Shown here piece after piece: positions 1,192 to 26,434 of a stretch of 32,000 nt of DNA. Location of the stretch: assembly GCA_964373795.1 (NCBI GenBank), contig CAYJVY010000007.1:60001-92000 (forward strand), in the 5' to 3' direction. Position 1 is the first letter of the stretch. Each line of letters begins with the position of its first letter. The notes under the pieces were generated by a model, which worked only from the letters and a program-made list of their open reading frames with translations, ran no database searches and had not been told where the DNA came from. The position numbers were made by a program, and so were the translations under genes. This stretch comes from an uncultured archaeon. Lineage in GTDB: Archaea; Iainarchaeota; Iainarchaeia; Iainarchaeales; DATDZZ01.

Positions 1192-1195
1192 ATAG

Positions 1196-1993: not shown

Positions 1994-2037
1994 CTTTTTG
2001 GAGAAATAAAAATGGGTTTAAAAAATTTAAAATTTTT

Positions 2038-2050: not shown

Positions 2051-2068
2051 TTCCGGGAGGAATTTTAA

Positions 2069-3412: not shown

Positions 3413-3426
3413 GAAAGGTATTTTTT

Positions 3427-6024: not shown

Positions 6025-6447
6025 ATGAAAGAACAAATTAAAGATTTGAAAGTTTTTTTGGATGATCGCGGAAGTTTGTTTGAAGCTTTAAGAGTTGATG
6101 ATAAAATTTTTGACACTGAATTTGCCCAATTAACTGTTGCAACTGTTTTTCCTGGAGTTGTAAAAGCATGGCATAGGCATCAAAAACAAACCGATTTTAT
6201 GGTTTGTGTGAAAGGAAACATTAAATTATGCTTAACTGAGAATGGTAAAGACATTAGAACATATTTTTTAGGAGAAAAAAATCCAATTTTAATTAAGATT
6301 CCAAAAAAACTTTGGCACGGATATATTTGTATTGGAGATCAATCAGCAATAGTTCTTTATGTAACAAATCAAACATATAATAAAGAAGATGAAGAAAGAT
6401 TAGATTGGCAAGCATTTGGAGATGTTTGGGCTATTAAAAACAAATGA
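6025..6447 (+). CDS. short RmlC-like cupin (dTDP-4-dehydrorhamnose 3,5-epimerase-related)
   Basis: FLDDRGSLFE followed by KAWHRHQKQTDFMVCVKGNIKL resembles the RmlC RG-F-E / GLH-Q...LV-C-G motifs. At 140 aa it is shorter than classical RmlC. Confidence 0.6.
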   Translation: MKEQIKDLKVFLDDRGSLFEALRVDDKIFDTEFAQLTVATVFPGVVKAWHRHQKQTDFMVCVKGNIKLCLTENGKDIRTYFLGEKNPILIKIPKKLWHGYICIGDQSAIVLYVTNQTYNKEDEERLDWQAFGDVWAIKNK

Positions 6448-6456: not shown

Positions 6457-8256
6457 TTGATGGACTTTAAAAAATTAGAAACCTTTCTTCTTTTAAAAAA
6501 AAACACTTTTTTACTATTTTTTATAATTTTACTTTATTTATTTTTATTTTTAAATCATTTTTCGACTTTATTTTTTGATGATTTAGGTTTTGATTTTGCA
6601 GGTTATGCACAAAGATATCATTTTGCTTTTCGCGGTTGGGTTCATGAGCTATTAAATGGGGTTCCAGCTTCAACTTTCGATCCTTTTTTGCCTGCTTTAC
6701 TGCCACTATTTATCAAATCTTTTGGATTTGGTTCCTTTACTTTGCCTATTTCAATTAGCTTACTTTTAGTGAAATTATTAATTCCATTAATTTTTGGTTT
6801 TATTGCTTTAAAGCTTGGGAAAAACAAGTTTTTTGGAGTTTTGCTTGGATTAATTTTTGTTTTAAATCCAATTACATTTAATTTTTTAAATAGATATTAT
6901 GAATTGGTTTCATGGATGTTTTTTATTTTAGCATTTTACTTTATTTATGTTTTTTTGGAATCAAAGGAATTCAATAAAAAATATTTCATTTTGTCAATTC
7001 TTTTTACAACTTTATCTTCTTTAAGTCATTTAAGTTCACTTTTTTTTCTTTTAAGTTCATCAATTTTTTTAATTACTTCTTTAAAGGACTTAAAAAAAGT
7101 TTTAAGTATTTACATTTTTTCTTTTCTTATTGGAGCGTTTTGGTTTATCCCATTTTTATCTTACATAAATTTCTCTGTTTTAATTAATTTAACTGGAAGT
7201 AAATTGAAAACCTTTGGAATAATTTCTTCAAGCGTTTTCCTTATAATTATTTTATTTATTTTATTGTTTTGGCTTAATACTGTAAAAGGCAAAACATCTA
7301 GATTAAGAAATTTTGTTTTAGGTATTTTAGTTTTATCTTTGGCTCAATTTTTTTTCAGTGAGTTTTCACTAATTAACAAACCATTTATTCACAGTTACCA
7401 TGTTTTTTACATTTTTGCAATTATTTTTGTTTTACTTAATTATTTTAATTTAAGTCTTTTAACTAAAAAAAATATTGCAGTTTTTGTAATTCTTTTTTTT
7501 GTTCCAACAATCTTTTTGTGGCCAAAGATTTCCGAACAATACTTTCAACTTCAACCAAGATTAAGCAATTATTCTATTTATAATGAAAAAATCGATTTTA
7601 GTGAAATTGATTTAATTCTTCAAAGAATTCCAAAAAATGTCAGGTATGAATCTTTTCCTTATGATCCAATTATTTCATCTTATTCTTCCACTAAATATGG
7701 TTTGATGAATTTGTTTGGATGGGGTTACAATGCATATCATATAAAAAATAGCTATAAAGCTCCTGAAGAACTGTTAGATCCTATAAAAACAACCTGTGAA
7801 GACCTGCAAAAATACGTTAAATTCAATGCATTAAAATATTTAATTGTTTTAAATAATTCTGCTTTTAATAAGTCAGTTGAATGTGGATTTAAAGAAATTC
7901 ACAAAGATGGAAAGGTTTTACTTGTTGAGTGGCCAGAAGAAGTTAGTTTAATTGAAAATGGAGAATTATTAGAGTTAAAAGAAAATTTCATTAAATTTGA
8001 AGCTAATCCTCCTTTAACTAAAATGAAAATGAGTTTTTTTCCTCGTTGGAACGCTTATATTGAAGGAAAAAAATTAGAAATAAAAAATGCAAATCCTGGA
8101 ATGCAAATGGAAATTTATTCATCTTCAATTGTTGAATTAAGATATGAAAAAACTTTGATTGATTTGATTGGGGTTACATTGTCAATAATTTCTTTGCTTG
8201 GGTTAATTTTTTATTGGTTTTTTGGACTGCCTAAAATTGAAAGACTAATGCAGTAA
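6457..8256 (+). CDS. polytopic membrane protein, GT-C-like glycosyltransferase / oligosaccharyltransferase candidate
   Basis: There are about 13 hydrophobic segments over residues 1-350. An acidic first loop (FFDDLGFDFAGY) follows TM1. A soluble domain of about 210 aa contains LFGWGYNAYHI, and there is a final C-terminal TM. The likely start is the ATG at 6460 (TTG at 6457). Confidence 0.5.
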   Translation: MMDFKKLETFLLLKKNTFLLFFIILLYLFLFLNHFSTLFFDDLGFDFAGYAQRYHFAFRGWVHELLNGVPASTFDPFLPALLPLFIKSFGFGSFTLPISISLLLVKLLIPLIFGFIALKLGKNKFFGVLLGLIFVLNPITFNFLNRYYELVSWMFFILAFYFIYVFLESKEFNKKYFILSILFTTLSSLSHLSSLFFLLSSSIFLITSLKDLKKVLSIYIFSFLIGAFWFIPFLSYINFSVLINLTGSKLKTFGIISSSVFLIIILFILLFWLNTVKGKTSRLRNFVLGILVLSLAQFFFSEFSLINKPFIHSYHVFYIFAIIFVLLNYFNLSLLTKKNIAVFVILFFVPTIFLWPKISEQYFQLQPRLSNYSIYNEKIDFSEIDLILQRIPKNVRYESFPYDPIISSYSSTKYGLMNLFGWGYNAYHIKNSYKAPEELLDPIKTTCEDLQKYVKFNALKYLIVLNNSAFNKSVECGFKEIHKDGKVLLVEWPEEVSLIENGELLELKENFIKFEANPPLTKMKMSFFPRWNAYIEGKKLEIKNANPGMQMEIYSSSIVELRYEKTLIDLIGVTLSIISLLGLIFYWFFGLPKIERLMQ

Positions 8257-9177
8257 AATTAATGCCCACATTTCAAAACCTGTTTTCAAGCCTTTAATTA
8301 TGTCACTTCCAACTCCTTTGCTTTCTCCAATTCTTTTCTTGAAAGTGATTGGAATTTCAATTACTCGTAAATCGTTTTTTAATGCAATTAAAATCATGTG
8401 AGGAGAAAAAGAATTTCCAGTTACAGTTAATTGATTAATTATTTTGTCTAATGCTTCAGGGCGAATAACTCTAAAAGTTGTTCCAACATCTGTTAATCTT
8501 AATTTATCCCAATAACGTAGTTGAATTAATTTTGACAAAAATAGGTTTCCATATCTAATGAATGGAGTTACTTGTGAATCAGAGTTAACTAATTCTTCAG
8601 TTGTTCGAGTTCCAACAACTATGTCAACATTTTCAATGTATGCAACCAATTTTTTCAAGTCAGCTGAAGAGTAAGTGCAGTCTCCTTCAACCAAGCAAAT
8701 TAAGTTTCCATATTTTCTTGCTTCTTTTAATGCTCTAATGCATGCAGCACCATATCCTTGGGTTGACTCTTTTACTACTATTGCTCCTGCTTTTTTTGCT
8801 TCTAAAGCAGTATTATCAATGCAGTTATTGTCTATTACAATTATCTTTTCCACTTCTTTTAATTGTTTAAAGTCTTTAACTGCTCTTCCAATAGCTTTTT
8901 CATCATTGTATGCAGTCATTCCTATAGAAATTTGTGGGTTTTTAATTGGTTCAAACTTAAATTTTTTTTTATGTGGAAAAAAGATTGTGGGAATAAATAA
9001 ATCCACAAAGACAGCAATAAATGCAATGAATGCGAAAATATTTGCAGCAAAAATTAAGTTGTTTGTTAAAGGAAAATTAACTTTTAATAAAGTTAAAACA
9101 AATGCTAAAAAATATAATATATAAAAAAATATTCCGGCTAAAAAAAAGTGGAAACCATATAAAAGAATTCTTCCCAT
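8245..9177 (-). CDS. membrane-anchored family 2 glycosyltransferase (polyprenyl-phosphate glycosyltransferase-like)
   Basis: Two N-terminal TM segments are followed by a GT2 core: ISIGMTAYNDEKAIG...IIVIDNNCIDNT...LVEGDCTY...VVGTR. Its 3' end overlaps the convergent gene by 12 nt. Confidence 0.8.
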   Translation of the reverse strand: MGRILLYGFHFFLAGIFFYILYFLAFVLTLLKVNFPLTNNLIFAANIFAFIAFIAVFVDLFIPTIFFPHKKKFKFEPIKNPQISIGMTAYNDEKAIGRAVKDFKQLKEVEKIIVIDNNCIDNTALEAKKAGAIVVKESTQGYGAACIRALKEARKYGNLICLVEGDCTYSSADLKKLVAYIENVDIVVGTRTTEELVNSDSQVTPFIRYGNLFLSKLIQLRYWDKLRLTDVGTTFRVIRPEALDKIINQLTVTGNSFSPHMILIALKNDLRVIEIPITFKKRIGESKGVGSDIIKGLKTGFEMWALILLH

Positions 9178-9288: not shown

Positions 9289-10173
9289 TTGTCGAAGAAA
9301 ATTTTAATTCTTGGAGAAGGTTTTTTAGGAACAAAACTTAATTCTAAATTAATTGAAGCAGGTTTTAATTCACTTGCAGTAAGTCCTTCTCATTTGAAAT
9401 ATAAAGTTGATATAACTATTCCAACTCAATTAAAAACAATATTCAATTCATTTAAGCCAGACATAGTAGTTCTAGTTGCAGCAATAACTGATGTTGATTT
9501 TTGTGAAAAAAATAAAGATTTAGCTTCAAAAATTAATATTGAAGGAGTCAAAAATGTTGTTGAGGCATGTAAATCTCTTGGTTGTAAATTGATTTTTATT
9601 TCAACAGATTCTGTTTTTGATGGTAAAAAAGGCAATTACTTTGAATCAGACCAAGTGAATCCAATTAACCATTATAGTTTGACTAAGGTTGAAGGAGAAA
9701 AACTTGTTTCAACTCTTAGTGATTATCTTATTTTGAGGGTAGCGGCTCTCTATGGTTTTAATCATTTAGTTAATAGAAAAACTTTTGTTAACTGGATTAT
9801 TGATTCATTAAAAAATGGTAAAAAAATTGACATAGTTACTGATCAAATGATGTGTCCAACTTTAATTGACGATATTGGTAATGCAATAATTTCATTAGTG
9901 AATCAAAATGAAAAAGGTTTATTTCATTGCTCTGGAAGTGAAGCAGTTTCAAAATACGATTTTGCTCAAAAAATTGCTAAAGTTTTTGATTTAGATTCAT
10001 CTCTTATTCAAGAAACGACTTCTGCAATATTAAAACAAACTGCTTTAAGACCTCATAATATTTCTTTAAATATTTCAAAGCTTGAAAGCAAGGGAATTAA
10101 AATGCATGGTTGTTTGCAGGGATTAAAAATTATGAAAAAACAAATGAATGAATTAATTGAATTGAATAAATAA
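9289..10173 (+). CDS. RmlD-like NDP-4-keto-6-deoxyhexose reductase
   Basis: KILILGEGFLGTKL glycine-rich N-terminus, STDSVFDG and catalytic YSLTKVEGEK, with length typical of dTDP-4-dehydrorhamnose reductase. TTG start about 20 nt downstream of a TTTTAAAT box. Confidence 0.65.
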   Translation: MSKKILILGEGFLGTKLNSKLIEAGFNSLAVSPSHLKYKVDITIPTQLKTIFNSFKPDIVVLVAAITDVDFCEKNKDLASKINIEGVKNVVEACKSLGCKLIFISTDSVFDGKKGNYFESDQVNPINHYSLTKVEGEKLVSTLSDYLILRVAALYGFNHLVNRKTFVNWIIDSLKNGKKIDIVTDQMMCPTLIDDIGNAIISLVNQNEKGLFHCSGSEAVSKYDFAQKIAKVFDLDSSLIQETTSAILKQTALRPHNISLNISKLESKGIKMHGCLQGLKIMKKQMNELIELNK

Positions 10174-10176: not shown

Positions 10177-11391
10177 TTAAACTATTTCTGGAAAAGGAAT
10201 TGGAATAATAAATTTTCCTTTAAATCCTTTTTCTTTGAGTTTTGGAATAATTATATGTTTAATATTCCAAGCCAAAAGTAAAGCATATTCAGGTTGGTCT
10301 TCAAATAACTGTTTTTCGTCTATTACTTTAATATGCATTCCAGGACTATATTTTCCTATTTTTAATTCATTTCTTTCACAAAGATAATCTAAAATAAATG
10401 GCCCTATTTTGCAAAAATTTAGTAAAGTATTTCCTTTTGCTGGAGCGCCTATTCCTACAATTTTTTTGCCTTTTGATTTTAAATCATTTACTATGTCTAA
10501 CAATTTTTGTCTGTTTTCTACAACTTTTTGCCCAAATTTTGTAAAAGTTTCTTTTGTATACAATCCTGCTTTTTCCTCTTCCATTAATGTTTTTGAAACA
10601 TTTTCAATTATTTTGTATGCATTTTTTTTGCAAGCATATACTCTTAGCGAACCTCCATGAGTATCAACTCTTTTAACGTCAAAAACATCCAAGCCATATT
10701 TATTGAACAAATAAATTAATGGTTTTAATGAATAATACCTTAAATGTTCTGCATAAATTGAGTCGTATTCCATTTCATGAATTAAATCCAATAAATAATG
10801 GGATTCTTCAATGAATACTCCGTCATTTGTTAATAGTAATTTTATTCCTTTCATTAAAGAATCTAGTTCTCTTACATGAGCGAAAACATTTGTTGCAGTT
10901 ATAATTTTTGCTTTACCATTTTCTTTTAAAATTTTTTTTGCAGTTTCTTCATTAAAAAATTCAGGTAAAGTTGGAATTCCTTTTTTTACAGCTATTTTTG
11001 CTGCTTCGGATGGATCAACTCCTAATATTTTTATTTTATCAGGTAAATAAGCTTCTAATAGGGTTCCATCGTTTGAACCAATATCTATAACAAAGTCTTT
11101 TGATGAAAGATTAAATCTTGGAATTGCTTCTTTAACTAGTGCATGAAAATTGTCTTTTAAGTTTTTGTTTTCTCCAGTAAGATATACAAAGCTATCAGTG
11201 AATAGAATTTTTGGGTCAACTGCATAACCTGTTTGAACTAGTTTACATTTTTCACAAAAAAACAAGTCTAATGGATAATGTGTTTCAGGTTTTATTAATT
11301 CTTCTTTGCTTAAAAATTTATCACTTGGAGGTTGATGCCCTAAAGATAGTACTTTAATTAAGTTTTCGTTTTCACAAACTTGGCATTTCAT
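10177..11391 (-). CDS. NDP-hexose C-methyltransferase (TylCIII-type), paralog 1
   Basis: N-terminal zinc ribbon CQVC...LG.QPP...FFCEKCKLVQ, class I SAM fold VIDIGSNDGTLL and TATNVFAHV, and a C-terminal domain ending GFKGKFIIPIPFP. The start lies 2 nt after the upstream SDR stop. Confidence 0.8.
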   Translation of the reverse strand: MKCQVCENENLIKVLSLGHQPPSDKFLSKEELIKPETHYPLDLFFCEKCKLVQTGYAVDPKILFTDSFVYLTGENKNLKDNFHALVKEAIPRFNLSSKDFVIDIGSNDGTLLEAYLPDKIKILGVDPSEAAKIAVKKGIPTLPEFFNEETAKKILKENGKAKIITATNVFAHVRELDSLMKGIKLLLTNDGVFIEESHYLLDLIHEMEYDSIYAEHLRYYSLKPLIYLFNKYGLDVFDVKRVDTHGGSLRVYACKKNAYKIIENVSKTLMEEEKAGLYTKETFTKFGQKVVENRQKLLDIVNDLKSKGKKIVGIGAPAKGNTLLNFCKIGPFILDYLCERNELKIGKYSPGMHIKVIDEKQLFEDQPEYALLLAWNIKHIIIPKLKEKGFKGKFIIPIPFPEIV

Positions 11392-11393
11392 TT

Positions 11394-12386
11394 TTATTTC
11401 CCCTTTTTATTAAAGTATTTTTCATACCATTTAAAAGTTTTTCCAAGTCCTTCATCTAAATTTGTTTTTGGTTTAAAACCTAAATCTACAAGCCTTGATA
11501 TATCTGGGCATCTTCTTGAAACACTTCCTTTTGGAGCTGGATGAATGTCTATTTCTGGATTTACGTTTGCAATTGTGAAAATTTTTTTTGCTAAATTCAT
11601 TATTTTGATTTCTTCATCACTTCTTCCAATGTGAATTGTTTGAGCAGTTGTTTTAGGGCTTTCCATTACAATTTGTGTTGCTTCAATTGCGTCATCAATG
11701 AAGCAAAAAGTTCTAGTTTCTTGCCCTCCAAATATTTTGAATGGATTTTCTTTTTTCACTATTCGTTCAATAAATTGAGGAATTACATGTTCTTCCCCCA
11801 TTCGCGGACCATAAATATTGTGATATCTGATAATGCAAAAATTCATTTTATGCAAATGGTGGTAACAATTTAATGTTACTTCATTCATTATTTTGCTTGC
11901 GCCGTATGACCATCTAACATTTGATGGATTATCAATGCAGAGGGGAACGTTTTCTGGAGTTGGAATTGGGAATTTTTTTCCTAAAATCTTTAAAGTTCCT
12001 GCATAGGTTTCAGAACTTGAAGAAAACAATATTTTTCCGTGCTTTGATTTAACAAACCAATCCAATAAATTGATTGTTCCAATTACTCCTACTTTAATTA
12101 CTTTGTCTGGAATTTTGTAAAAATTTTCAGTTCCATTAATTGCAGCTAAATGGTAAACAAAATCATATTTTTTTTCTAATTTTGAAAATTCATTTGCATT
12201 AGTAATATCCATTTTAATGAAATCAGTGTTTTTGTTTTCTAAGAGTTGTTTAAACTCTTTATCTTTTTTTCCTCTAGCAAAATTATCCATTATGGTTACA
12301 TGGTATTTTTCTGCTAATTTTTTGGATAAATGAAATCCAATAAATCCTGCTCCGCCTGTAACTAAAACAGTTTTTAATGTATTCAT
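11394..12386 (-). CDS. NAD-dependent nucleotide-sugar epimerase/dehydratase/ketoreductase (extended SDR)
   Basis: [14 protein letters not shown] and catalytic YGASKIMNE, with extended-SDR length. Its first 12 codons and promoter are repeated, inverted, at 24607-24770. Confidence 0.8.
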   Translation of the reverse strand: MNTLKTVLVTGGAGFIGFHLSKKLAEKYHVTIMDNFARGKKDKEFKQLLENKNTDFIKMDITNANEFSKLEKKYDFVYHLAAINGTENFYKIPDKVIKVGVIGTINLLDWFVKSKHGKILFSSSSETYAGTLKILGKKFPIPTPENVPLCIDNPSNVRWSYGASKIMNEVTLNCYHHLHKMNFCIIRYHNIYGPRMGEEHVIPQFIERIVKKENPFKIFGGQETRTFCFIDDAIEATQIVMESPKTTAQTIHIGRSDEEIKIMNLAKKIFTIANVNPEIDIHPAPKGSVSRRCPDISRLVDLGFKPKTNLDEGLGKTFKWYEKYFNKKGK

Positions 12387-12500
12387 GTTATTATTTAACT
12401 AGAAGTTAAAGTTTTTATATCCTAGTAATACAAACTTGTAATACTTGTTTTAAGTAATTGTTTGAGTTTTTGTACTAATAAACCTTTTTAAAGTTTTATT
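12337..12500 (-). repeat. inverted repeat arm L (promoter region plus first about 17 codons of the SDR gene)
   Basis: The reverse complement aligns by hand with 24607-24770. That gives a 40-nt block with 1 mismatch and 1 indel, a roughly 26-nt diverged patch, then about 99 nt with roughly 4 differences, including ATGAATACATTAAAAACTGTTTTAGTTACAGG. Confidence 0.85.
12405..12418 (-). promoter_or_regulatory. BRE/TATA-like box ATAAAAACTTTAAC upstream of the SDR gene
   Basis: Part of inverted repeat arm L, 18 nt upstream of the start codon. Confidence 0.4.
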
Positions 12501-12552
12501 GAATTAACTGTACTATTAAATTTTAATTAAAAATAATTAATAAATAAAAAAA

Positions 12553-13794
12553 GTGAAAAAGTTGGAAAAAATAGCAATTTTAGGAATTGGAAGAGTTGGC
12601 TTGCCCTTATCATTGATTATTGCGGAAACAGGTTTTACAGTTTATGGAATTGATGTAAGAGAAGATTATGTTAATTTAATTAAATCTAAGAAAATGCCTT
12701 TTGTTGAAGAAGAAGCACAAGAATTGCTTGAAAAACAGGTTGGGAAAAACTTTTTTCCCACAACTGAAATAAAACATTTATCTGAAGTTGACATAATTAT
12801 TTTAACTCTTGGAACTCCTGTAGATGAGCACTTAAATCCGGATTTCAAGCAAATTAATTCTGTTTTACATGACTTGAAAGACAAGCTTCGAAAAGGGCAA
12901 TTAATTATTTTGCGTTCAACTGTTTCTCCTGGTACAACTGAATATATTAAGGAATTTATTGAAAAAAATACTTCTTTTCAAGTTGGAAAAGATTTATTTT
13001 TGGCTTTTTGTCCTGAAAGAATTGCTGAAGGAAAAGCAATTGTTGAAACAAAAGAAATTCCTCAAATAATTGGAGGTATTGATAAAAAAAGTTCTGAAAT
13101 GGCGAAAAACTTTTTTTCAAAAATAACTAAGGAATGCATTTTAACTGATTCTCGAAGTGCAGAATTGGCAAAAATTTTTACAAACATGTATCGTTACATT
13201 AATTTTTCAATTTCAAATGAATTCATGATTTTGGCTGAAGAACATGAAAGAAATATTTACGAAATTCTGCATTTAATTAATTACAATTATAAGCGTGGAG
13301 GAGTAAAATCCCCTGGATATACTGCTGGGCCTTGCCTTTACAAGGATGGATTTTTTTTAGTTAACACAATGCCTTTCACTGAATTAATTTCCACTAGTTG
13401 GAAAATAAATGAAACTACTCCATTGTATCTTTTGAAAAAAGTTAAAGAAATGAAGGGAAGCTTGAAAGGAAAAAAAGTTGTAATTCTTGGAATGAGTTTT
13501 AAAGCAGATATTGATGATACTCGTAATTCTTTGAGTTTTAAAATTAAAAATGCATTAATTCAGGAAAACACTGCAACAGTATGCCATGACCCATTAGTTA
13601 AGGAATTCAATTCTGATTTAAGCAATACATTAAAAGACGCAGATGTATTGTTCATTGGAATAAATCATTCTTTTTACAAAAAAAATCTCTCAATTGATTT
13701 TCTTAAAAAATTAGTGAAAAAGGATTGCATTGTTTGTGATATTTGGAATTTACTTGGCAAAACAAAAATTTGTTATTCTCTGAAAGAAGTTTAA
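12553..13794 (+). CDS. nucleotide-sugar 6-dehydrogenase (UDP-glucose/GDP-mannose dehydrogenase family, WecC/TviB-like)
   Basis: IAILGIGRVGLPLS Rossmann motif, FCPERIAEG, catalytic Cys in GPCLYKD and C-terminal ILGMSFKADIDDTRNS. GTG start. Confidence 0.8.
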   Translation: MKKLEKIAILGIGRVGLPLSLIIAETGFTVYGIDVREDYVNLIKSKKMPFVEEEAQELLEKQVGKNFFPTTEIKHLSEVDIIILTLGTPVDEHLNPDFKQINSVLHDLKDKLRKGQLIILRSTVSPGTTEYIKEFIEKNTSFQVGKDLFLAFCPERIAEGKAIVETKEIPQIIGGIDKKSSEMAKNFFSKITKECILTDSRSAELAKIFTNMYRYINFSISNEFMILAEEHERNIYEILHLINYNYKRGGVKSPGYTAGPCLYKDGFFLVNTMPFTELISTSWKINETTPLYLLKKVKEMKGSLKGKKVVILGMSFKADIDDTRNSLSFKIKNALIQENTATVCHDPLVKEFNSDLSNTLKDADVLFIGINHSFYKKNLSIDFLKKLVKKDCIVCDIWNLLGKTKICYSLKEV

Positions 13795-14736
13795 TTATTT
13801 TTTTTTGAATTCTTCTTTTAATGTTTGAATTGTTTTTTTCATTCCGGAATTAAAATCTGTTTTTGCAGTGAATCCTAGAGCTTGTTTTGAAAGTGAAGTG
13901 TTTGCAATAATTTTTTGAATTTCTGTTGCAACATTTTCTTTATGGTTTAAAGGAACATTTGTTTCAAGTAATTCATTTATTTTCATAACTAGTTCATTTA
14001 AAGTAGTGCTTTCGCCAGTTCCAATATTGAACGATTTTCCATCCATATTTTTTGGAGCCTTTGCTGCTTTAATGAATCCTTTAACTATGTCTGAAACAAA
14101 TACAAAATCTCTTTCTTGAGTTCCATCTCCATTAATTGAAGGAGCTTTTCCTTGAAGTATTTGCTCAGCAAAAATTGATATTACTCTATTTTTCATTCTA
14201 GGCCCATAGGCATTGAAGATCCTTAAACAAATAGTTGGCAATCCTTTAACATCGTTAAAAAATTTTGCATAAAATTCACCCATAACTTTAGTGAATCCAT
14301 AAGGGCTGTTTGGTTTGAATGGATCTGTTTCAGGAGTTGGATCATGTTCTGGTTCACCATAAATAATGCAAGTACTTGGAAACAAAAATCTTTCAACAGA
14401 GTTTTCATGACAAGCTTTTAAGACATTCAAAGTTCCCCCGATGTTAACCGAGTTATATGCTTCTGGAATTTTAATTGATTCTCCAACATAACTTAATGCA
14501 GCCATGTGAAAAACAAACTTTGAATCCTTTACAGCGTTATTTATTTCATTAAAGTTTCTTATATCTCCTTTAAGTATTTTAACCTCGTTTTTTACTTTCT
14601 CGAGATTTTGCATGAAGCCTGTACTAAAATTATCGAAAACTGTTACTTCAAAATTTTCTTTAACTAGTCTTTCCACTAAATGGCTTCCAATAAATCCTGC
14701 TCCACCTGTTACAACTACTTTTTCAGTCATAAGCAT
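13795..14736 (-). CDS. NAD-dependent nucleotide-sugar 4-epimerase-like SDR
   Basis: [18 protein letters not shown], catalytic YGFTKVMGE and INGDGTQERDFVFVSD. Its stop directly abuts the stop of the convergent dehydrogenase gene. Confidence 0.8.
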   Translation of the reverse strand: MLMTEKVVVTGGAGFIGSHLVERLVKENFEVTVFDNFSTGFMQNLEKVKNEVKILKGDIRNFNEINNAVKDSKFVFHMAALSYVGESIKIPEAYNSVNIGGTLNVLKACHENSVERFLFPSTCIIYGEPEHDPTPETDPFKPNSPYGFTKVMGEFYAKFFNDVKGLPTICLRIFNAYGPRMKNRVISIFAEQILQGKAPSINGDGTQERDFVFVSDIVKGFIKAAKAPKNMDGKSFNIGTGESTTLNELVMKINELLETNVPLNHKENVATEIQKIIANTSLSKQALGFTAKTDFNSGMKKTIQTLKEEFKKK

Positions 14737-14777
14737 TTTGAATTCAAATAGTATTTTAAAGTTTTTTAAGCACAGTC

Positions 14778-16049
14778 TTGGTTGTTGTTATGAGCAAATT
14801 TTTTGAAGTAAAGGAATGCAGAATTTGTAATTCAACTAATTTGAAAAAATATTTGGATTTAGGTGAAATGCCTTTAGCAAATGCATTGGTTGATCTTTCA
14901 AGTAAAGAAAAAGACTTGTTTTTTCCATTGCAGTTATTGTTTTGCAAGAATTGCTTTTTGACTCAATTAAGTGTAGTTGTAAATCCTGAAATATTGTTTT
15001 CAAATTATCCTTATCAAACATCTATTTCGAGTACTTTTCAAAAGCATTTTTTTGAAATGTCTAAAGAGGTTGCAAAACTTTTTCCCAAAAAAAATGAATG
15101 CCTTGTATTAGATATTGCAAGCAACGATGGCTGTTTATTAGAGCAATTCAAAAAAACTGGTTTCAAAGTTTTAGGAGTTGAACCCGCAAAAAATTTAGCC
15201 AAAATTGCTGAAGAAAAAGGAATTCCAACTATTCCCGAGTTTTGGAATGAGGGCGTAAGAGAAAAAATTATTTCAAATTATGGCAAGCCACTGGTTGTAA
15301 CTGCTACAAATGTTTTTGCACATGTTCACGATGTTAAATCTTTTGCTGAAAATGTTAAAGAGGTTTTAACAACTGATGGAGTTTTTATTCTTGAATTTCC
15401 TTATGCATTAAATTTGTTTGAGAAAACAGAGTTTGATACAATTTATCATGAACATTTATCTTATTTTTTAGTTCATCCTTTAATTACTTTGTTTAATGGC
15501 CTTGAAATGCAGGTATTTAATATTCAAGAAATTCCAATTCACGGAGGAAGTATTAGAGTTTTTGTTAAAAAATCTGAAAATAAAAAAATTAAAGTGAATG
15601 AAAAAGTAATTAACGAGTTTTTGGAAAGAGAAAAAAAGCATGGCCTGAATGAATTTAAATCATATGCTTCTTTTGCAGTAAAAGTTGGAAAAGTAAAAAA
15701 AGCTTTCACTAATTTGTTGAATAAATTAAAAGGTGAAAAAAAATTTGTTGCAGGTTTTGCAGCTGCAGCCAAAGCAAGTACTTTAATGCATTATTGTAAA
15801 GTTGGAAAAGAGCATATTAGGTTTATTATTGATGACGCTCCATTTAAACAAAACAAGGCTTTTTCAGGAAATCGAGTTCCAATTTATTCAAGGGCAAGGC
15901 TTGCTGATAACCCGGATTATTTGATCCTGTTTGCTTGGACTATTGCTGGAGAATTGATTAAAAAAACTAGAGAGCGAGGATTTAAAGGCAAATTTATTAT
16001 TCCAATTCCTTTTCCAAGAATTATTTTGAGTGAATCTGAATTGCTTTGA
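14778..16049 (+). CDS. NDP-hexose C-methyltransferase (TylCIII-type), paralog 2
   Basis: Zinc ribbon CRICNS...LGEMPLANAL...LFCKNCFLTQ, SAM fold VLDIASNDGCLL and TATNVFAHV, and C-terminal GFKGKFIIPIPFP. The likely true start is the ATG at 14790 (MSKFFEVKE). Confidence 0.8.
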   Translation: MVVVMSKFFEVKECRICNSTNLKKYLDLGEMPLANALVDLSSKEKDLFFPLQLLFCKNCFLTQLSVVVNPEILFSNYPYQTSISSTFQKHFFEMSKEVAKLFPKKNECLVLDIASNDGCLLEQFKKTGFKVLGVEPAKNLAKIAEEKGIPTIPEFWNEGVREKIISNYGKPLVVTATNVFAHVHDVKSFAENVKEVLTTDGVFILEFPYALNLFEKTEFDTIYHEHLSYFLVHPLITLFNGLEMQVFNIQEIPIHGGSIRVFVKKSENKKIKVNEKVINEFLEREKKHGLNEFKSYASFAVKVGKVKKAFTNLLNKLKGEKKFVAGFAAAAKASTLMHYCKVGKEHIRFIIDDAPFKQNKAFSGNRVPIYSRARLADNPDYLILFAWTIAGELIKKTRERGFKGKFIIPIPFPRIILSESELL

Positions 16050-17878: not shown

Positions 17879-18775
17879 TTGATTTTCATGGCGGAACGCG
17901 GAAAACTAGTTTCAATTATTTTAATTAATTGGAATAACTATGACATGACTAAAAACTGCATTAAATCGATTAAGCAAAACACTGATTATTCTAATTATGA
18001 AATTTATTTGATTGATAATGGTTCAACTGATGGAAGTTTTGAAAAATTGAAAAAAGAATTCAAGGATTTGAAGACAATTGTGAATTCTCGTAATAAGGGA
18101 TTTGCTTATGCCTTAAATCAAGGCTATAAAACTGCTAAAGGATTTTATTTATCCCATATCAATAACGATGCAATTGTTTTAAATGGATGGCTTTCAGCTG
18201 CAATTAAAGTGCTTGAATCAAATTCAAAAATTGCTATTGCAGGCTTTAGAGAAGTATCTTTAGAACAATCAAAGAATGCTGAAGAATTGAAAAAAATTCG
18301 GGAAGAGCCAGACATTGAAAAAATGACTTTGCCTGTTGGATGGGTTACTAAAAAGAAAATGATTCAAAAAATTGGTTACTTGGATGCTGAGTTTTTTTCT
18401 CCAATTTATGGAGAAGAAGCTGACTGGAATTTTAGGGCGAGAAACATGGGTTATAAAATTGTTCGCGTAAGTAAAGCAAACGTAGTGCATTTTAGTTCAG
18501 TTGATACTAAAAAACATTTAGGTTACTCTAAATACCTTGTTTTAATTAATTATCACAGATTAAGAGCAATGTTATTTAATTTGTCTTTACTTGATTTGCT
18601 TAGATTTGTTCCGGGACTTGGATTAATTTTATTTAATTCTGTTTGGCAGGGAACACTTATTCCATTGCTTAAATCTTATTGGCTAAATTTAATGGATTGG
18701 AAATTAATTTTAAAGCAAAGAAAATTTAAAAGAAGGTTTATTCCTTTTAAGGACGAAAAGTTTACAGTAATTTAA
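17879..18775 (+). CDS. family 2 glycosyltransferase
   Basis: VSIILINWNNYDMTKNCIKSI...YLIDNGSTDGS...INNDA and EEADWNFR are typical GT2 (rhamnosyltransferase-like) motifs. The likely start is the ATG at 17888. Confidence 0.8.
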   Translation: MIFMAERGKLVSIILINWNNYDMTKNCIKSIKQNTDYSNYEIYLIDNGSTDGSFEKLKKEFKDLKTIVNSRNKGFAYALNQGYKTAKGFYLSHINNDAIVLNGWLSAAIKVLESNSKIAIAGFREVSLEQSKNAEELKKIREEPDIEKMTLPVGWVTKKKMIQKIGYLDAEFFSPIYGEEADWNFRARNMGYKIVRVSKANVVHFSSVDTKKHLGYSKYLVLINYHRLRAMLFNLSLLDLLRFVPGLGLILFNSVWQGTLIPLLKSYWLNLMDWKLILKQRKFKRRFIPFKDEKFTVI

Positions 18776-18814: not shown

Positions 18815-19876
18815 ATGTTTCAATCAAAACAAGCCTTAATAGCAAAAACCCTTGAGAGAGGGGGTTTGGCTGGATTAACTAATTTAGCTTTAAGGTATTA
18901 TGAAAGAAATAATCAACCAGACAAACCTCATTTTGTTCCAACTGCTTTGCAAATAGAAGTTACAACTGCTTGTAACTTGAAGTGCACAATGTGTGAGCAT
19001 ACTTACATGCAGGAAGTTGGAGGACACTTTGGTTTTAAGGAGTTCAAAAAATTATTGGATGACAATCCCACAATTCAAGTAATTAATTTAACTGGAATTG
19101 GAGAAGCTTTAATGAATCCAGAATTTTTGGAAATGGTTGAATATGCTAAAAAGAAAGGAATTTATGTATGGTTTTCAGATAATTTTACTTTAATGATTGA
19201 AAAAAACATTCAAAAAATTATAGATGTAGGGGTTGACTTTGTAGTTATTTCTTTGGATGGAACAACAAAAGAAGTGTTTGAAAAAATAAGGGTTGCAGCG
19301 AACTTTGAAAAAGTAATAGGGAATTTAAAAAATTTAATTAAAATGAGAAATGAGAGAGGATTAAAAACTCCTTTAATTGGAATTAACATGGTTGTAATGA
19401 ATGAAAACTATCACCAAATTGCTGACATGGTTAAACTTGCAAATGAACTTGGAGTAGATAAATTAATGTTTATAACAATTGTTTTATCTGATACAACTGG
19501 AAATTTATCTTTGTGGAGTGTGCCCAAAGACAAACTTCAAGCAGAAGTTGAAAAAGCAAAAAAAGCTGCTGAAGGAACAAGTATACAAGTAATTAGTTGG
19601 CCAAATGTTTCACCTGAAAGAAAAAAAGAAACAGGTTGCGACTATCCTTGGAGTAATCCCTACATTACATATAATGGAGATGTAGTTCCTTGTTGTTTTA
19701 TTCCACAACAAACAGGTGCTCGTACAAATTCAGAAAATCTTATGGGAAACATTTTGAAAGAAGACTTGAAAAAAATTTGGGTAAACGAAAAATACGAAGA
19801 ATTTAGAAAAAAAATTAAATCTAAAGATCCTCCAACTTCTTGTAAGTCTTGCCCGAAATTTTATGGACAAATTTAA
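18815..19876 (+). CDS. radical SAM protein with C-terminal SPASM/twitch-like Cys-rich domain
   Basis: CNLKCTMCEH (CxxxCxxC) near the N-terminus. The C-terminal part reads GCDYPWSNPYITYNGDVVPCCF...SCKSCPKF, giving auxiliary-cluster cysteines. Confidence 0.8.
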   Translation: MFQSKQALIAKTLERGGLAGLTNLALRYYERNNQPDKPHFVPTALQIEVTTACNLKCTMCEHTYMQEVGGHFGFKEFKKLLDDNPTIQVINLTGIGEALMNPEFLEMVEYAKKKGIYVWFSDNFTLMIEKNIQKIIDVGVDFVVISLDGTTKEVFEKIRVAANFEKVIGNLKNLIKMRNERGLKTPLIGINMVVMNENYHQIADMVKLANELGVDKLMFITIVLSDTTGNLSLWSVPKDKLQAEVEKAKKAAEGTSIQVISWPNVSPERKKETGCDYPWSNPYITYNGDVVPCCFIPQQTGARTNSENLMGNILKEDLKKIWVNEKYEEFRKKIKSKDPPTSCKSCPKFYGQI

Positions 19877-19891: not shown

Positions 19892-21007
19892 ATGAAAATT
19901 TTATATATTACTTCTGTTTTAGGAAATATTGGTGGAAGCGAGATTTATACTAGAGATTTAATTAAGGAGCTTGCAAAAAGAGGCCATGAAATTTTTGTTG
20001 TAACAAATGCTGTTTTTCAATTTCCCGAAAAAAATGTTTCAGTTTTTAAGATTCCAATTTTTGGACATCATGCTTTTCACAAATTTCAAATGCCTTTATC
20101 ATATTTTAAAATTTTGGAAAAAGTGAAAGAGTTTCAGCCTGACATAATTCAATGTCATAGTAATTCTTTAATGGGTTTGATTGGGCATATTCTTAAAAAA
20201 AAATTTCAAATCCCAATGTTTTTATTAATTGAATCAGTTAGCGATAAGAACGCCAACATTCACACTGAATTAATTTTTCGAGTTGAAAAATTTTTAATGC
20301 CAAAACTTAATTACAATAAATTAATTGTGTGGACTGAAAACATTAAAAATAAGTTTTGCATTCCTTGGGGAATTTCTGAAAAAAAGATTAAAGTAATTCC
20401 CGCAGCACTAAATTTAAATGAGTATCCCTTAAATGCAGATAAAAAAGCACTTCAAAAAAAACACGGAAAGCATTTAATTATTTCAATTAAATCTTTATGG
20501 GGAACTAATACTGAAGGATTGAAAACCATTGTTGAAGCCATGAAATTTGTTCATGAAAAACATCCTGAATATAAATATTTAATTTTTGGGTGGGGGCCAG
20601 GAAGAAAAGATTTAGAAGAACTAGCTGAAAAACTTGGCTTGCGAGATTGTGTACAATTAATGGGTGCATTTGAAAAAAATGAAAAAAATAGTATTTTTTC
20701 AGCTGCAGAAATAACTCCTCATTCACTTGTTTATGAAGTTGCAACCTCAATTTCTTTGCTTGAATGCATGGCTTTTGGAAAAGCTTGTGTAGTAACAGAT
20801 ATTGGTGCAATTAAAGATGTAGTAAAAGATACAGCTATTTTAGTAAAGCAAAACAATCCCAAATCAATGAGTGAAGGAATAATTAAATTAATTGAAAATA
20901 CTGCATTAAGAAAAAAACTTGAAAAGAAGGCAAGAAAATTAGTTGAAAAAAAATATTCTATTCAAAGCACGGTAAATGAATTAGAAAAACTGTACTATGA
21001 TGTTTGA
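19892..21007 (+). CDS. GT4-family (GT-B) glycosyltransferase
   Basis: N-terminal MKILYITSVLGNIGGSEIYTRDL and a C-terminal E-x7-E-like region LLECMAFGKACVVTD. Confidence 0.75.
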   Translation: MKILYITSVLGNIGGSEIYTRDLIKELAKRGHEIFVVTNAVFQFPEKNVSVFKIPIFGHHAFHKFQMPLSYFKILEKVKEFQPDIIQCHSNSLMGLIGHILKKKFQIPMFLLIESVSDKNANIHTELIFRVEKFLMPKLNYNKLIVWTENIKNKFCIPWGISEKKIKVIPAALNLNEYPLNADKKALQKKHGKHLIISIKSLWGTNTEGLKTIVEAMKFVHEKHPEYKYLIFGWGPGRKDLEELAEKLGLRDCVQLMGAFEKNEKNSIFSAAEITPHSLVYEVATSISLLECMAFGKACVVTDIGAIKDVVKDTAILVKQNNPKSMSEGIIKLIENTALRKKLEKKARKLVEKKYSIQSTVNELEKLYYDV

Positions 21008-23306: not shown

Positions 23307-23352
23307 AGAATCTATTAAGTACGTGGGCAGAACTTTTCTTATTACGGGTGGT

Positions 23353-23577: not shown

Positions 23578-23584
23578 ATGACAA

Positions 23585-24606: not shown

Positions 24607-24770
24607 AATAAAACTTTAAAGAGGTTATTAGTACAAAAACTCAAATTATTTCCCCCAACTTATGTTGCAAATTTGTATTACTAGGATATAAAAACTTTAA
24701 CTCACTAGTTAAATAATAATATGAATACATTAAAAACTGTTTTAGTTACAGGGGGAGCAGGATTTATTGG
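24607..24770 (+). repeat. inverted repeat arm R (promoter region plus first about 17 codons of rfbB)
   Basis: See arm L. The encoded N-terminus [17 protein letters not shown] is identical in both genes. Confidence 0.85.
24688..24701 (+). promoter_or_regulatory. BRE/TATA-like box ATAAAAACTTTAAC upstream of rfbB
   Basis: It ends 19 nt before the ATG at 24721. The same box on the minus strand at 12405-12418 ends 18 nt before the ATG at 12386. Confidence 0.4.
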
Positions 24771-25692
24771 TTCGAATTATGTTGAATTTCATTTAAATAA
24801 ATATCCTGAAGATGAGGTAATTGTTTTGGATAAATTAACTTATGCTGGTAGAAAAGAAAATTTAAAAGAATTTGAGTCAAACTCAAATTTTGAATTTGTT
24901 AAAGGAGACATTTGTAATAAAAAATTGGTTGAAAAACTGGTTAAAGATGTTGATGTTGTAATTAATTTTGCTGCTGAAACTCATGTTGATAGATCAATTC
25001 AAGGACAAGCAGAGTTTCTTGAAACAAATATTATTGGAACTTACAATTTATTGGAAGCCTCACGAAATTCAAGTGTTAAAAAATTTTTGCAGATTTCAAC
25101 TGACGAAGTTTATGGTTCGGTGGAAAAAGGTTCTAGCTTAGAAACGGATGAATTAAAGCCTCGAAATCCTTATTCTGCTTCAAAAGCAGCAGCTGATAGG
25201 TTTGCTTATTCTTATTTTGCAACTTATGGATTGCCTGTTTTAATTACTCGTGCTTCAAATAATTATGGTCCAAAACAATTTCCGGAAAAGGTTTTACCTT
25301 TGTTTATTACAAATTTGTTAAAAGGAAAAAAAGTTCCATTGTATGGTGATGGAAAAAATGTTCGAGACTGGCTTTACGTGGAAGATCATTGCAAGGCATT
25401 AGATGTTGTTTTGCAGAAAGGCAAATTTGGAGAAGTGTATAATGTTGGAGGAAATTGCGAACTTCAAAATATTGAATTAACTCATAAAGTTTTAAAGGCT
25501 TTAGGAAAAGGAGAGGAAATGATTGAATTAGTTAAAGACAGGCCAGGACATGATAGAAGGTATTCATTAAATTCAAGCAAATTAGAGGTGCTTGGATGGA
25601 AAACTGAAACAAGTTTTGAAGAAGGGTTGAAAAAAACAATTGAATGGTATAAAAAAAATGAAGCTTGGTGGAAACAATTAATAAAAAGTTAA
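24721..25692 (+). CDS. rfbB: dTDP-glucose 4,6-dehydratase
   Basis: [29 protein letters not shown], catalytic YSASKAAADRF and C-terminal DRPGHDRRYSL. Confidence 0.9.
   Translation: MNTLKTVLVTGGAGFIGSNYVEFHLNKYPEDEVIVLDKLTYAGRKENLKEFESNSNFEFVKGDICNKKLVEKLVKDVDVVINFAAETHVDRSIQGQAEFLETNIIGTYNLLEASRNSSVKKFLQISTDEVYGSVEKGSSLETDELKPRNPYSASKAAADRFAYSYFATYGLPVLITRASNNYGPKQFPEKVLPLFITNLLKGKKVPLYGDGKNVRDWLYVEDHCKALDVVLQKGKFGEVYNVGGNCELQNIELTHKVLKALGKGEEMIELVKDRPGHDRRYSLNSSKLEVLGWKTETSFEEGLKKTIEWYKKNEAWWKQLIKS
24757..24981 (+). repeat. 225-bp perfect direct repeat, copy 2 (inside intact rfbB)
   Basis: Identical to 23353-23577. Confidence 0.95.
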
Positions 25693-25705: not shown

Positions 25706-26434
25706 ATTAAAGGAGTTATTTTAGCTGGGGGCACTGGTTCAAGGTTAAAGCCTCTTACAAATGTAACAAATAAGCATTTGCTTCCGGTTTACGATAAGCC
25801 AATGATTTATTATCCAATTGAAACTTTGAAGTCTGCAGGCATAAAAGATATTTTAGTTATTACTGGAACTCATCATGCTGGAGCAATTTTTAATCTTTTA
25901 GGTAGTGGAAAAGATTTTGGAGTAAATTTTACTTATAGAGTTCAAGATGAAGCTGGAGGAATTCCAAGCGCAATTGGCTTAGCTGAAGGCTTTGTTGGAA
26001 ACGATAAATTTGTTTCCATTAATGGAGACAATATTTTAACTCATTCAATTAAAAGCTTTGTAAATGAATTTGAAAAAGGCAATGAGGGAGCAAGAATTTT
26101 ATTATATAATGGAACTGTTGAGCAAGCAAAAAAGTCTGGAGTAGCAGTTTTAAAAGGAGATAAAGTGCTTGAATTAATTGAAAAACCATTAGATCCTCCT
26201 TCTACAATGATTTCAATTGGAGTCTATATGTATACTTCAAAAGTTTTTGATGTAATTAAAACATTAAAGCCTAGTGCTAGAGGAGAAACAGAGATAACTC
26301 ATGTTAACACTCATTACTTAAAAAAAGGCTCACTAAAAGCAAACGTAATTGAAGGGGAATGGCTTGATGCAGGAACAGTTGAAGAACTATTAGAGTCAAA
26401 CATTAAATTAAAAAAATTGGCTGAAAAAAAGTAA
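25706..26434 (+). CDS. rfbA: glucose-1-phosphate thymidylyltransferase-like nucleotidyltransferase, probable non-canonical ATT start
   Basis: The frame is open from 25685 and encodes (I)KGVILAGGTGSRLKPLTNVTNKHLLPVYDKPMIYYP. The essential GGTGSRL loop lies upstream of the first canonical start (TTG 25778). AAGGAGG at 25691-25697 is 8 nt before the ATT at 25706. Confidence 0.75.
   Translation: MKGVILAGGTGSRLKPLTNVTNKHLLPVYDKPMIYYPIETLKSAGIKDILVITGTHHAGAIFNLLGSGKDFGVNFTYRVQDEAGGIPSAIGLAEGFVGNDKFVSINGDNILTHSIKSFVNEFEKGNEGARILLYNGTVEQAKKSGVAVLKGDKVLELIEKPLDPPSTMISIGVYMYTSKVFDVIKTLKPSARGETEITHVNTHYLKKGSLKANVIEGEWLDAGTVEELLESNIKLKKLAEKK

Follow-up and report, generated by a model that had tools for sequence, protein, structure and literature searches.

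The present analysis concerns a window of 32,000 nucleotides (contig CAYJVY010000007.1, positions 60,001 to 92,000 of the forward strand) and, within it, two genes, here termed MT1 and MT2, for sugar C-methyltransferases of the TylCIII type. The window has about 28% G+C, and nearly all of it is taken up by nucleotide-sugar and glycosyltransferase genes. The best matches to MT1 and MT2 come from DPANN archaea (Diapherotrites, Micrarchaeota, Woesearchaeota, and metagenome-assembled genomes of unclassified archaea) and from bacteria of the candidate phyla radiation (CPR). The window is assigned to an archaeon because its relatives are archaeal, and it probably forms the central part of a surface-glycan island in an uncultured, DPANN-type archaeon with AT-rich DNA. 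The two methyltransferase genes bracket a gene for a nucleoside diphosphate (NDP)-sugar 6-dehydrogenase (DH), and each adjoins a gene for a short-chain dehydrogenase/reductase (SDR) of the extended type:

10177..11391, minus strand: MT1, NDP-ketosugar C-methyltransferase, clade 1; 404 aa, with zinc ribbon, class I S-adenosylmethionine (SAM) fold and Methyltransf_14 domain
11394..12386, minus strand: SDR1, extended SDR proposed to be co-transcribed upstream of MT1; Pfam Epimerase/GDP_Man_Dehyd; ends 2 bp before the MT1 start
12553..13794, plus strand: DH, WecC/Cap5O-like NDP-sugar 6-dehydrogenase; TIGR03026 at 315 bits against a cut-off of 190
13795..14736, minus strand: SDR2, GalE/WbpP-like SDR of the extended type; 53 bp separate it from MT2, which runs divergently; best PDB match 6dnt, 4.8e-54
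14790..16049, plus strand: MT2, NDP-ketosugar C-methyltransferase, clade 2; 419 aa from the ATG at 14790, a TTG at 14778 being also possible

This layout, with a WecC-like dehydrogenase between two methyltransferase-SDR pairs, had been read from the sequence in a preliminary description of the DNA and is borne out by the coordinates and by the TIGR03026 match. Both methyltransferase open reading frames (ORFs) lie where they had been placed, and the start of MT2 is better set at ATG 14790, which public gene calls and homologues use, than at TTG 14778.

The three-part architecture that had been described for both ORFs was recovered with Pfam models. MT1 matches Methyltransf_13 (PF08421, 2.3e-21), Methyltransf_23 (1.7e-14) and Methyltransf_14 (PF08484, 1.4e-50), and MT2 matches the same three (1.1e-18, 1.2e-11 and 1.9e-42, respectively); both cover the PF08484 profile in full, and Methyltransf_12 and Methyltransf_11 also match both. 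The SAM-fold motif is DIGSNDG in MT1 and DIASNDG in MT2, and TATNVFAHV and GFKGKFIIPIPFP are present in both. Among solved structures, MT1 aligns over its full length with MtmC (3.9e-79), KijD1 (4e-63) and TcaB9 (2e-59), and MT2 likewise with MtmC (1.2e-85) and TcaB9 (6e-61), while no NCBIfam model names either protein. Judged by these matches, which far exceed what chance would produce, MT1 and MT2 are members of the TylCIII/TcaB9/MtmC C-methyltransferase family.

The residues conserved in MT1 are C3, C6, C46, C49, H172, Y213, E215 and H216. The zinc cysteines of MT1 and MT2 align with the four cysteines of TcaB9, MtmC and KijD1, and in a 180-sequence alignment these four, together with the equivalents of TcaB9 His181, Tyr222, Glu224 and His225, are kept in both proteins and in nearly all clade members. 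The TcaB9 active-site numbering (Tyr76, His181, Tyr222, Glu224, His225) is what we take to be that of Bruender and Holden 2012 (Holden laboratory); the TcaB9 mutant in PDB entry 4e31 differs from the wild type at the Tyr76-equivalent position, consistent with this numbering. The Tyr76 equivalent is kept in MT2 and is phenylalanine in MT1 (Phe68) and in 28 of the 121 MT1-clade members. This replacement bears on the idea that one of the paralogues is not a methyltransferase in vivo and serves instead as an inactive scaffold or as a 4-ketoreductase, the second activity reported for MtmC, which is the closest solved relative of both proteins and is described as bifunctional, also in its PDB name. 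Such a role is scarcely credible, because the SAM-fold motifs and the equivalents of His181, Tyr222, Glu224 and His225 are kept in both, because the phenylalanine variant is conserved across so many clade members and is thus under selection, and because dedicated reductase candidates adjoin both genes.

MT1 and MT2 share 38% identity over 399 residues by BLASTP (E 2e-85), and 40.7% amino-acid and 55.7% nucleotide identity in a global alignment, near the 35-40% first estimated by eye for the parts outside the shared patches. The family to which they belong is very large, with 3,755 clusters (at 50% identity) matching MT1 at E<=1e-30, and its presence in an environmental genome is therefore unsurprising by itself. 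In a neighbour-joining tree (402 columns, 200 bootstraps) whose sampling was seeded by MT1 and MT2, the MT1 clade holds 121 sampled sequences (bootstrap 100) and the MT2 clade 53 (bootstrap 96), and MtmC, KijD1 and TcaB9 form a third clade apart from both (bootstrap 99); the tree left out TylC3, EryBIII, NovU and CBU_0691 and does not show their placement relative to the two clades. As had been suggested, MT1 and MT2 are deep, old paralogues. A recent duplication or an assembly artefact is ruled out by the 56% nucleotide identity and by the separate orthologues of the two genes. At the 3' ends, the codons of the C-terminal GFKGKFIIPIPFP are identical at 38 of 39 nucleotides between MT1 (11389-10177) and MT2, compared with 56% overall, and MT2 orthologues mostly have GGKYIIPMPFP at this position; the near-identity could reflect a short gene-conversion tract or codon bias. 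Fusions also occur in both clades: an RfaE-domain-II-like nucleotidyltransferase is joined to the methyltransferase in the MT1 clade (P0056 and P0061, the latter being L172 10001-11731), and an RmlD-like reductase in the MT2 clade (P0162, P0163, P0170, P0182 and P0184). Many more family members of 550-930 aa were seen in a representative search.

The preliminary description had proposed that rmlA and rmlB, elsewhere in the window, supply dTDP-4-keto-6-deoxyglucose (dTDP, deoxythymidine diphosphate) as the sugar to be methylated. For MT1, the partner genes argue against this. The context of MT1 was surveyed with the MT1-clade alignment in a scan of one genome per species, which gave 80 loci that were searched by tblastn with the window proteins; 79 had enough upstream sequence, and 54 had long flanks, 30 of these with SDR1 directly upstream. 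An SDR1 homologue directly precedes the MT1 homologue on the same strand in 40 of the 79 loci. The pair is found in Planctomycetota, Verrucomicrobiota, Acidobacteriota, Alpha- and Gammaproteobacteria, Chloroflexota, Gemmatimonadota, Actinomycetota, Omnitrophota, Melainabacteria, Saccharibacteria, Microgenomates (CPR), Methanosarcinales and DPANN archaea. A WecC-like DH lies within 8 kb in 24 of 30 SDR1-MT1 loci and in none of 15 loci lacking SDR1 (Fisher p 1.6e-7, with phylogeny ignored), and a small polyprenyl-phosphate-type glycosyltransferase of family 2 (GT2) is present in 21 of the 30. In none of these 30 SDR1-MT1 loci did tblastn detect an RmlA homologue. Locus L030 carries a formyltransferase, DH, a DegT aminotransferase, GT2, SDR1, MT1 and a 692-aa membrane protein, a set that resembles the Arn pathway. 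Locus L061 carries GT2, a GFO/IDH/MocA oxidoreductase, SDR1, MT1, DH, a NUDIX protein and ManC. After the MT1 homologue, L042 encodes a protein whose match to PMT_2 (GT-C; E 2.6e-5) is weak and, at 24.9 bits against a cut-off of 26.1, sub-threshold.

SDR1 and DH themselves are compatible with a route through a uronate. ArnA, CalS9, AtmS9, RsU4kpxs and EvdS6 are SDR decarboxylases that release an NDP-4-keto-pentose (PMC10338323). In a full-length alignment of SDR1 with E. coli ArnA's decarboxylase domain (E 3e-20), S433, E434, Y463, K467 and R619 are all matched; the corresponding SDR1/ArnA motif pairs are SSSE with STSE, VRWSYGASK with PRWIYSVSK (SDR1 having the RWxYxxSK motif) and GGQETRTF with GGKQKRCF. 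The alignment with human UXS1 is similar (E 8e-31). The Ser-Ser-Glu motif of SDR1 is that of dehydratases and decarboxylases. DH has the catalytic cysteine motif GPCLYKD; its closest solved relatives are Cap5O (1.5e-58) and the uridine diphosphate (UDP)-ManNAc dehydrogenase of P. horikoshii, and it also matches CalS8, a TDP-glucose dehydrogenase (1.7e-27). A search of SDR1 homologues for fusions (formyltransferase-SDR or DH-SDR) returned only stand-alone proteins with generic names among the best 120 matches.

Together, this context suggests that a uronate-derived 4-keto sugar is a better guess for the substrate of MT1 than dTDP-4-keto-6-deoxyglucose. DH, SDR1 and MT1 (cassette A) would then act in sequence. 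DH, the proposed supplier of uronate to SDR1, would oxidise an NDP-hexose or NDP-N-acetylhexosamine (HexNAc) to the uronate; as DH is WecC-like, the starting sugar may be a UDP-HexNAc, although other nucleotide carriers are conceivable in this predicted step. SDR1, the proposed generator of the NDP-4-keto substrate, probably by oxidative decarboxylation, would oxidise C4 and decarboxylate as ArnA or CalS9 do, yielding an NDP-4-keto-pentose. MT1 would deprotonate the carbon beside the ketone and move a methyl group to it from SAM, and the ketone would be reduced afterwards.

The principal alternative for this cassette is that SDR1 is an ordinary GMD- or LegB-like 4,6-dehydratase acting on a second nucleotide sugar (a GDP- or UDP-hexose or HexNAc). 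MT1 would then make a classical 3-C-methyl-6-deoxyhexose, as proposed for virenose in Coxiella, and DH would supply an unrelated uronic acid to the same glycan. SDR1 and its homologue in L030 do score highest against dTDP-glucose dehydratase and LegB models (129 and 154 bits), the Ser-Ser-Glu motif is common to GMD, many other family members have an SDR resembling 4,6-dehydratases immediately upstream of the methyltransferase, and in L061 the cassette is beside ManC, which belongs to GDP-mannose synthesis. However, the strict tracking of SDR1 by DH (24/30 against 0/15) would be difficult to account for if DH and SDR1 had unrelated functions, and the recurrent partners of SDR1-MT1 are Arn-like: the polyprenyl-phosphate GT2 (21/30) and the DegT aminotransferase (6/30), with a formyltransferase in one of the 30 loci and annotated in L030, and the weak PMT_2 match in L042. 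An ordinary dehydratase is thus considered unlikely, if still a serious contender.

Several further observations weigh against decarboxylation by SDR1. SDR1 reaches no curated model cut-off, and its RmlB and LegB scores are as good as its UXS and ArnA scores. The residues that it shares with ArnA also occur in some 4,6-dehydratases, and sequence alone cannot split SDR decarboxylases from 4,6-dehydratases of the GMD or LegB type (PMC10338323); the assignment of SDR1 as a decarboxylase therefore draws on its context. The co-occurrence counts for DH, SDR1 and MT1 ignore phylogeny, and the DegT aminotransferase (6/30) and the formyltransferase (1/30) are rare; no DegT or Formyl_trans_N domain was found by Pfam in the window ORFs scanned. 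Some MT1-clade genes are set differently: RmlA/RmlB are their neighbours in L011, L014 and L140, and in L172 the methyltransferase is fused to an RfaE-like nucleotidyltransferase. Additionally, DH resembles UDP-ManNAc dehydrogenases and not Ugd, no WecB is present, and the window already has a textbook Ugd (43-1191) and UXS (3427-4356).

A different order of steps has also to be weighed. As the co-occurrence of DH, SDR1 and MT1 leaves the order unfixed, DH might act last, on a C-methyl hexose made by SDR1 and MT1, and oxidise its C6 to give a hexuronic acid with a C-methyl branch, akin to moenomycin's 4-C-methyl uronamide; uronic acids are abundant in archaeal N-glycans. This order is very improbable, since a released 4-keto-hexose that retains its C6 hydroxyl has no known SDR precedent in such a family context, and since SDR1 has the glutamate typical of enzymes that eliminate or decarboxylate at C5/C6. 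The preferred order for cassette A remains oxidation, predicted decarboxylation and then methylation.

As a separate observation, unrelated organisms repeatedly have a gene for a NUDIX hydrolase next to an MT1-clade cassette (L039 6496-7062, L061 12491-13051, L172 9501-9983), and it may control the nucleotide-sugar pool.

The candidate partners of MT2, and the remaining genes of the island that recur with either methyltransferase, are as follows:

6025..6447, plus strand: small cupin (RmlC/FdtA/WbuC-like); Pfam FdtA 1.4e-10, dTDP_sugar_isom 1.3e-9; WbuC and RmlC models weak
8245..9177, minus strand: GT2, AglJ/DPM1/ArnC-like polyprenyl/dolichyl-phosphate glycosyltransferase; AglJ model 1.9e-25, dolichyl-phosphate hexose transferase 3.3e-19
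9289..10173, plus strand, convergent with MT1: RmlD-like 4-ketoreductase; RmlD_sub_bind 1.7e-65; TIGR01214 216.6 bits, slightly below the cut-off of 224
17879..18775, plus strand: GT2 glycosyltransferase; Pfam; weak match to a rhamnosyltransferase subfamily, 1.4e-10
18815..19876, plus strand: radical SAM/SPASM protein; Pfam
19892..21007, plus strand: family 4 glycosyltransferase (GT4) of the conserved module; Pfam
24721..25692, plus strand: RmlB, dTDP-glucose 4,6-dehydratase; TIGR01181 468 bits against a cut-off of 365 (equivalog passed)
25706..26434, plus strand: RmlA-type glucose-1-phosphate thymidylyltransferase (short form); NTP_transferase 4e-41; rmlA models 1e-52 to 1e-55, below cut-offs

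Ahead of the mechanical TTG start of rmlA, and before any ATG, GTG or TTG, the reading frame already encodes the conserved N-terminus, KGVILAGGTGSRL (25693-25778), and GGAGG at 25693-25697 lies 8 nt before the ATT at 25706. The gene is probably intact, with its true start at ATT 25706. The radical SAM/SPASM protein passes no NCBIfam model, the best being a tungsten-cofactor maturase (177 bits against a cut-off of 380). The GT2 at 8245-9177 is 26% identical to E. coli ArnC (E 3e-11) and has zero matches among PDB sequences.

For MT2, the proposed supply of dTDP-4-keto-6-deoxyglucose by RmlA and RmlB fits, given its Rml partners and RmlD fusions. Among the loci with MT2 and without MT1, SDR1 or DH, L087 (MT2 at 61% identity) has orthologues of both GT2 enzymes (8245-9177 and 17879), the radical SAM/SPASM protein, SDR2, the SDR at 22186, GT4, RmlB, RmlA, the cupin and the RmlD-like reductase. 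The locus also includes AglB, an AglH-like gene and Alg14/Alg13. L173 (MT2 at 59%) has AglB, SDR2, MT2 and GT2, likewise without cassette A; AglH-like and Alg13/14 genes were noted for it also. In L088, L090 and L174 (MT2 at 50-54%), the GT2 of 8245-9177, MT2, the RmlD-like reductase and the cupin occur together, and L089 and five other proteins are RmlD::MT2 fusions preceded by a cupin. The RmlD-like reductase adjoins the MT2 homologue in L088, L090 and L174 and is fused to it in L089; in L087, it belongs to the same cluster, some 8.5 kb further downstream. Cupin homologues flank MT2-clade genes in L087-L090 and L174. Similarly, orthologues of the GT2 at 8245-9177 (54-60% identity) adjoin MT2 homologues in L087, L088 and L090, and by context this gene tracks MT2 at least as much as MT1. 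Those of the GT2 at 17879-18775 (53-66%) adjoin MT2 in L002, L004, L006 and L087, being directly downstream in relatives. Orthologues of the radical SAM/SPASM protein (57-60%) and of GT4 (48-57%) occur in the same four loci, with only fragments of the former in L173. In the window, the cupin, MT2 and the RmlD-like reductase fall within 9 kb, and rmlA and rmlB are 9 kb downstream. A metagenome scan with the MT2-clade alignment returned mostly distant members (35-42% identity), of which only L090 and L091 belong to the MT2 clade, and its remainder is to be read as a general context survey.

The divergent SDR2/MT2 pair is conserved, with a spacer of about 80 bp, in L002, L004, L006 and L173. The best structural match of SDR2, 6dnt, is a UDP-GlcNAc 4-epimerase (PMC12820599). 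SDR2 has an STC motif and lacks the dehydratase glutamate, and it is therefore more likely to be a ketoreductase or epimerase than a source of ketosugar; a role as 4-ketoreductase or epimerase of the MT2 branch is proposed. An SDR at 22186-23256 (plus strand) has the STNKVYG motif typical of CDP-tyvelose 2-epimerase-like enzymes, and its orthologue in L087 (53% identity) adjoins SDR2. A further SDR ORF (23323-23709, plus strand; 128 aa) covers only the N-terminal Rossmann part and looks like a truncated gene remnant.

The context of MT2 fits action on dTDP-4-keto-6-deoxyglucose and resembles that of noviose or methyl-rhamnose synthesis. In this cassette B, RmlA and RmlB would make dTDP-4-keto-6-deoxyglucose, which the cupin, a candidate epimerase or isomerase of the MT2 branch, could epimerise. 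MT2 would then methylate C3 or C5, and reduction of the 4-ketone by the RmlD-like reductase and/or SDR2 would give a methyl-rhamnose or noviose-like 6-deoxyhexose.

Three related archaeal genomes carry both methyltransferases in one compact module, in the order SDR2(-) MT2(+) GT2(+) GT4(-) DH(-) radical SAM/SPASM(-) SDR1(+) MT1(+). All eight module proteins are 53-70% identical to window proteins, and all eight genes recur in the window in a different order, where a B12-binding radical SAM gene has been added after MT2. AglB/STT3 flanks the module on one side in L004 and L006, with no AglB within the flank examined of the third module genome (L002/L003), and the opposite side carries genes for TATA-binding protein, ribosomal protein L21e and an RNA polymerase subunit in L002 and L004. 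AglB likewise adjoins the MT2-only loci L087 and L173. The receiving glycan of the island is probably an N-glycan, as predicted from these neighbours, and no STT3 match was found by Pfam among the window ORFs scanned. The module GT2 and GT4 enzymes would pass the products on, possibly via a dolichyl-phosphate intermediate made by the GT2 at 8245-9177.

If the two enzymes served one pathway, MT1 and MT2 could act successively on a single dTDP-4-keto-6-deoxyhexose, one at C3 like TylC3 and the other at C5 like NovU, and a reductase would then yield a doubly C-methylated 6-deoxyhexose. Among characterised family members, C3 is methylated by TylC3, TcaB9 and MtmC, and C5 by NovU, so that both carbons flanking the C4 ketone are known targets. 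rmlA and rmlB are within the window, and both methyltransferase genes are in one compact eight-gene module in the three related genomes; the interleaving of the cassettes in these closest relatives leaves room for sequential action on one sugar and counts against two separate products. In contrast, MT2 units occur without MT1, SDR1 or DH in L087, L088, L089, L090, L173 and L174, MT1 units without MT2 in about 70 loci, and the MT1 cassette is tied to a 6-dehydrogenase and has RmlA in 0/30 loci. Since either cassette can be found on its own in other genomes, one doubly methylated sugar is disfavoured and regarded as improbable. Therefore, of the two outcomes that the preliminary description had left side by side, one doubly methylated sugar or two different ones, the separability of the cassettes and the non-equivalence of their SDRs point to the second. 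That two separate cassettes make two different methyl-branched sugars, A via a decarboxylated uronate and B via dTDP-4-keto-6-deoxyglucose, is judged to have an even chance of being right.

A broader proposal is more tentative and, on balance, doubtful. DH-SDR1-MT1 would be an uncharacterised route spread over more than a dozen phyla of bacteria and archaea, by which oxidative decarboxylation of an NDP-uronate yields an NDP-4-keto-pentose that is then C-methylated to a methyl-branched pentose or aminopentose, delivered in many lineages on polyprenyl phosphate. In DPANN archaea it would be joined with a methyl-rhamnose- or noviose-type cassette, in some beside AglB, to give N-glycans with two branched sugars.

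Other parts of the window were also inspected. The B12-binding radical SAM gene (16064-17719, minus strand), convergent with MT2, is absent from the orthologous module of relatives; the closest models (HpnJ, BchE, and P- or C-methyltransferases) all score far under their cut-offs, and the protein may add a third methyltransferase, of the radical type, with a sugar or lipid as its substrate. Window positions 43-4356 (plus strand) hold a separate, canonical UDP-xylose branch, made up of Ugd, which the window edge truncates, together with an NTP-transferase, a phosphoglucomutase and a UXS of textbook type that has a QTRSF motif. A DPM1/AglJ-like GT2 gene at 4362-5067 (plus strand) is broken across three frames (4362-4694, 4731-4961 and 4954-5067), probably as a pseudogene or through sequence errors, and is followed by about 1 kb of ORF-poor sequence up to 6025. 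Beside the dolichyl-phosphate-type GT2, a polytopic membrane protein of 599 aa with a C-terminal beta-rich domain is encoded at 6457-8256 (plus strand). It has only a weak match to EpsG (Wzy-like; E 0.0018) and no similarity to ArnT, no homologue of which was detected in the window, and its AlphaFold2 single-sequence model is unusable (mean predicted local distance difference test score, pLDDT, 44.6).

C-methyl-branched sugars are, to our knowledge, known almost only from actinomycete antibiotics and a few lipopolysaccharide (LPS) antigens, and every TylCIII-type enzyme that we know to have been assayed uses a 4-keto-6-deoxyhexose from a 4,6-dehydratase. We know of no branched sugar reported from any archaeal glycan, nor of any described class of methyl-branched sugars made by NDP-uronate decarboxylation and C-methylation, or of such a coupling of enzymes. 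In agreement with the preliminary description, the literature searched yielded no paper linking the TylCIII-type family to archaeal glycans; nor did it yield a characterised counterpart of the DH-SDR1-MT1 cassette. Three things appear to be new, judged from gene content: an archaeal context linked to AglB, two deep paralogues paired within a single conserved module, and above all the widespread DH-SDR1-MT1 cassette. If the proposed route is correct, a large and unstudied clade of the family works on a uronate-derived ketosugar, which would widen branched-sugar chemistry and offer new biocatalysts, and the surface proteins of uncultured DPANN archaea, which attach to host cells through their surfaces, would bear two different branched sugars. 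The eight-gene module is a concrete, clonable set for testing. Should the route prove wrong, the locus would still offer a clean example of a glycan island that contains two ordinary members of the family.

In comparison to the actinomycete enzymes TylC3, EryBIII, TcaB9, KijD1 and MtmC, MT1 and MT2 have the same three domains, the four zinc cysteines and the His181, Tyr222, Glu224 and His225 equivalents, with E values of 1e-59 to 1e-85 against TcaB9, KijD1 and MtmC. They are, however, only 28-43% identical to antibiotic-pathway C-methyltransferases and fall in two other clades, MT1 has phenylalanine at Tyr76, and their setting is an archaeal host with a glycan or N-glycosylation island instead of a secondary-metabolite cluster. 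Moreover, the window has no 2,3-dehydratase or aminotransferase, and the predicted sugars would therefore keep O2 and O3.

The noviose cassette consists of the 3,5-epimerase NovW, the C5-methyltransferase NovU and the 4-ketoreductase NovS, acting on dTDP-4-keto-6-deoxyglucose. In contrast to noviose, the product of MT2 would go to a glycoprotein or glycan and not to an aminocoumarin, and MT2 may methylate C3 or C5. The gene sets are alike in that MT2-clade genes have an RmlC-like cupin as a neighbour and an RmlD-like reductase as a neighbour or fusion partner, with RmlA and RmlB nearby.

In Coxiella burnetii, the TylCIII-like CBU_0691 belongs to the biosynthesis of the LPS sugar virenose, and the nucleotide carrier is uncertain there (PMC3539893). 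It is likewise a family member devoted to a cell-surface glycan rather than an antibiotic, and the uncertainty of the carrier is common to both systems, applying to cassette A here. The Coxiella system differs in that it serves a bacterial LPS, has one methyltransferase, and draws its proposed substrate from a 4,6-dehydratase.

Cassette A resembles the Arn pathway of 4-amino-4-deoxy-L-arabinose (L-Ara4N; Ugd/ArnA/ArnB/ArnC/ArnT) and the CalS8/CalS9 aminopentose pathway. It departs from Arn in that a C-methyltransferase is inserted after the SDR, an arrangement for which we know of no characterised precedent, and in that DH is WecC-like and not Ugd-like; the window also has no aminotransferase or formyltransferase, and no ArnT homologue was detected in it. 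The two pathways and cassette A nevertheless share a 6-dehydrogenase and an ArnA-like SDR with matching catalytic residues, to which the ArnC-like GT2 may be added, and in bacterial versions of cassette A the likeness to Arn extends to a DegT aminotransferase and a formyltransferase, besides a PMT_2 (GT-C) match that is weak and sub-threshold.

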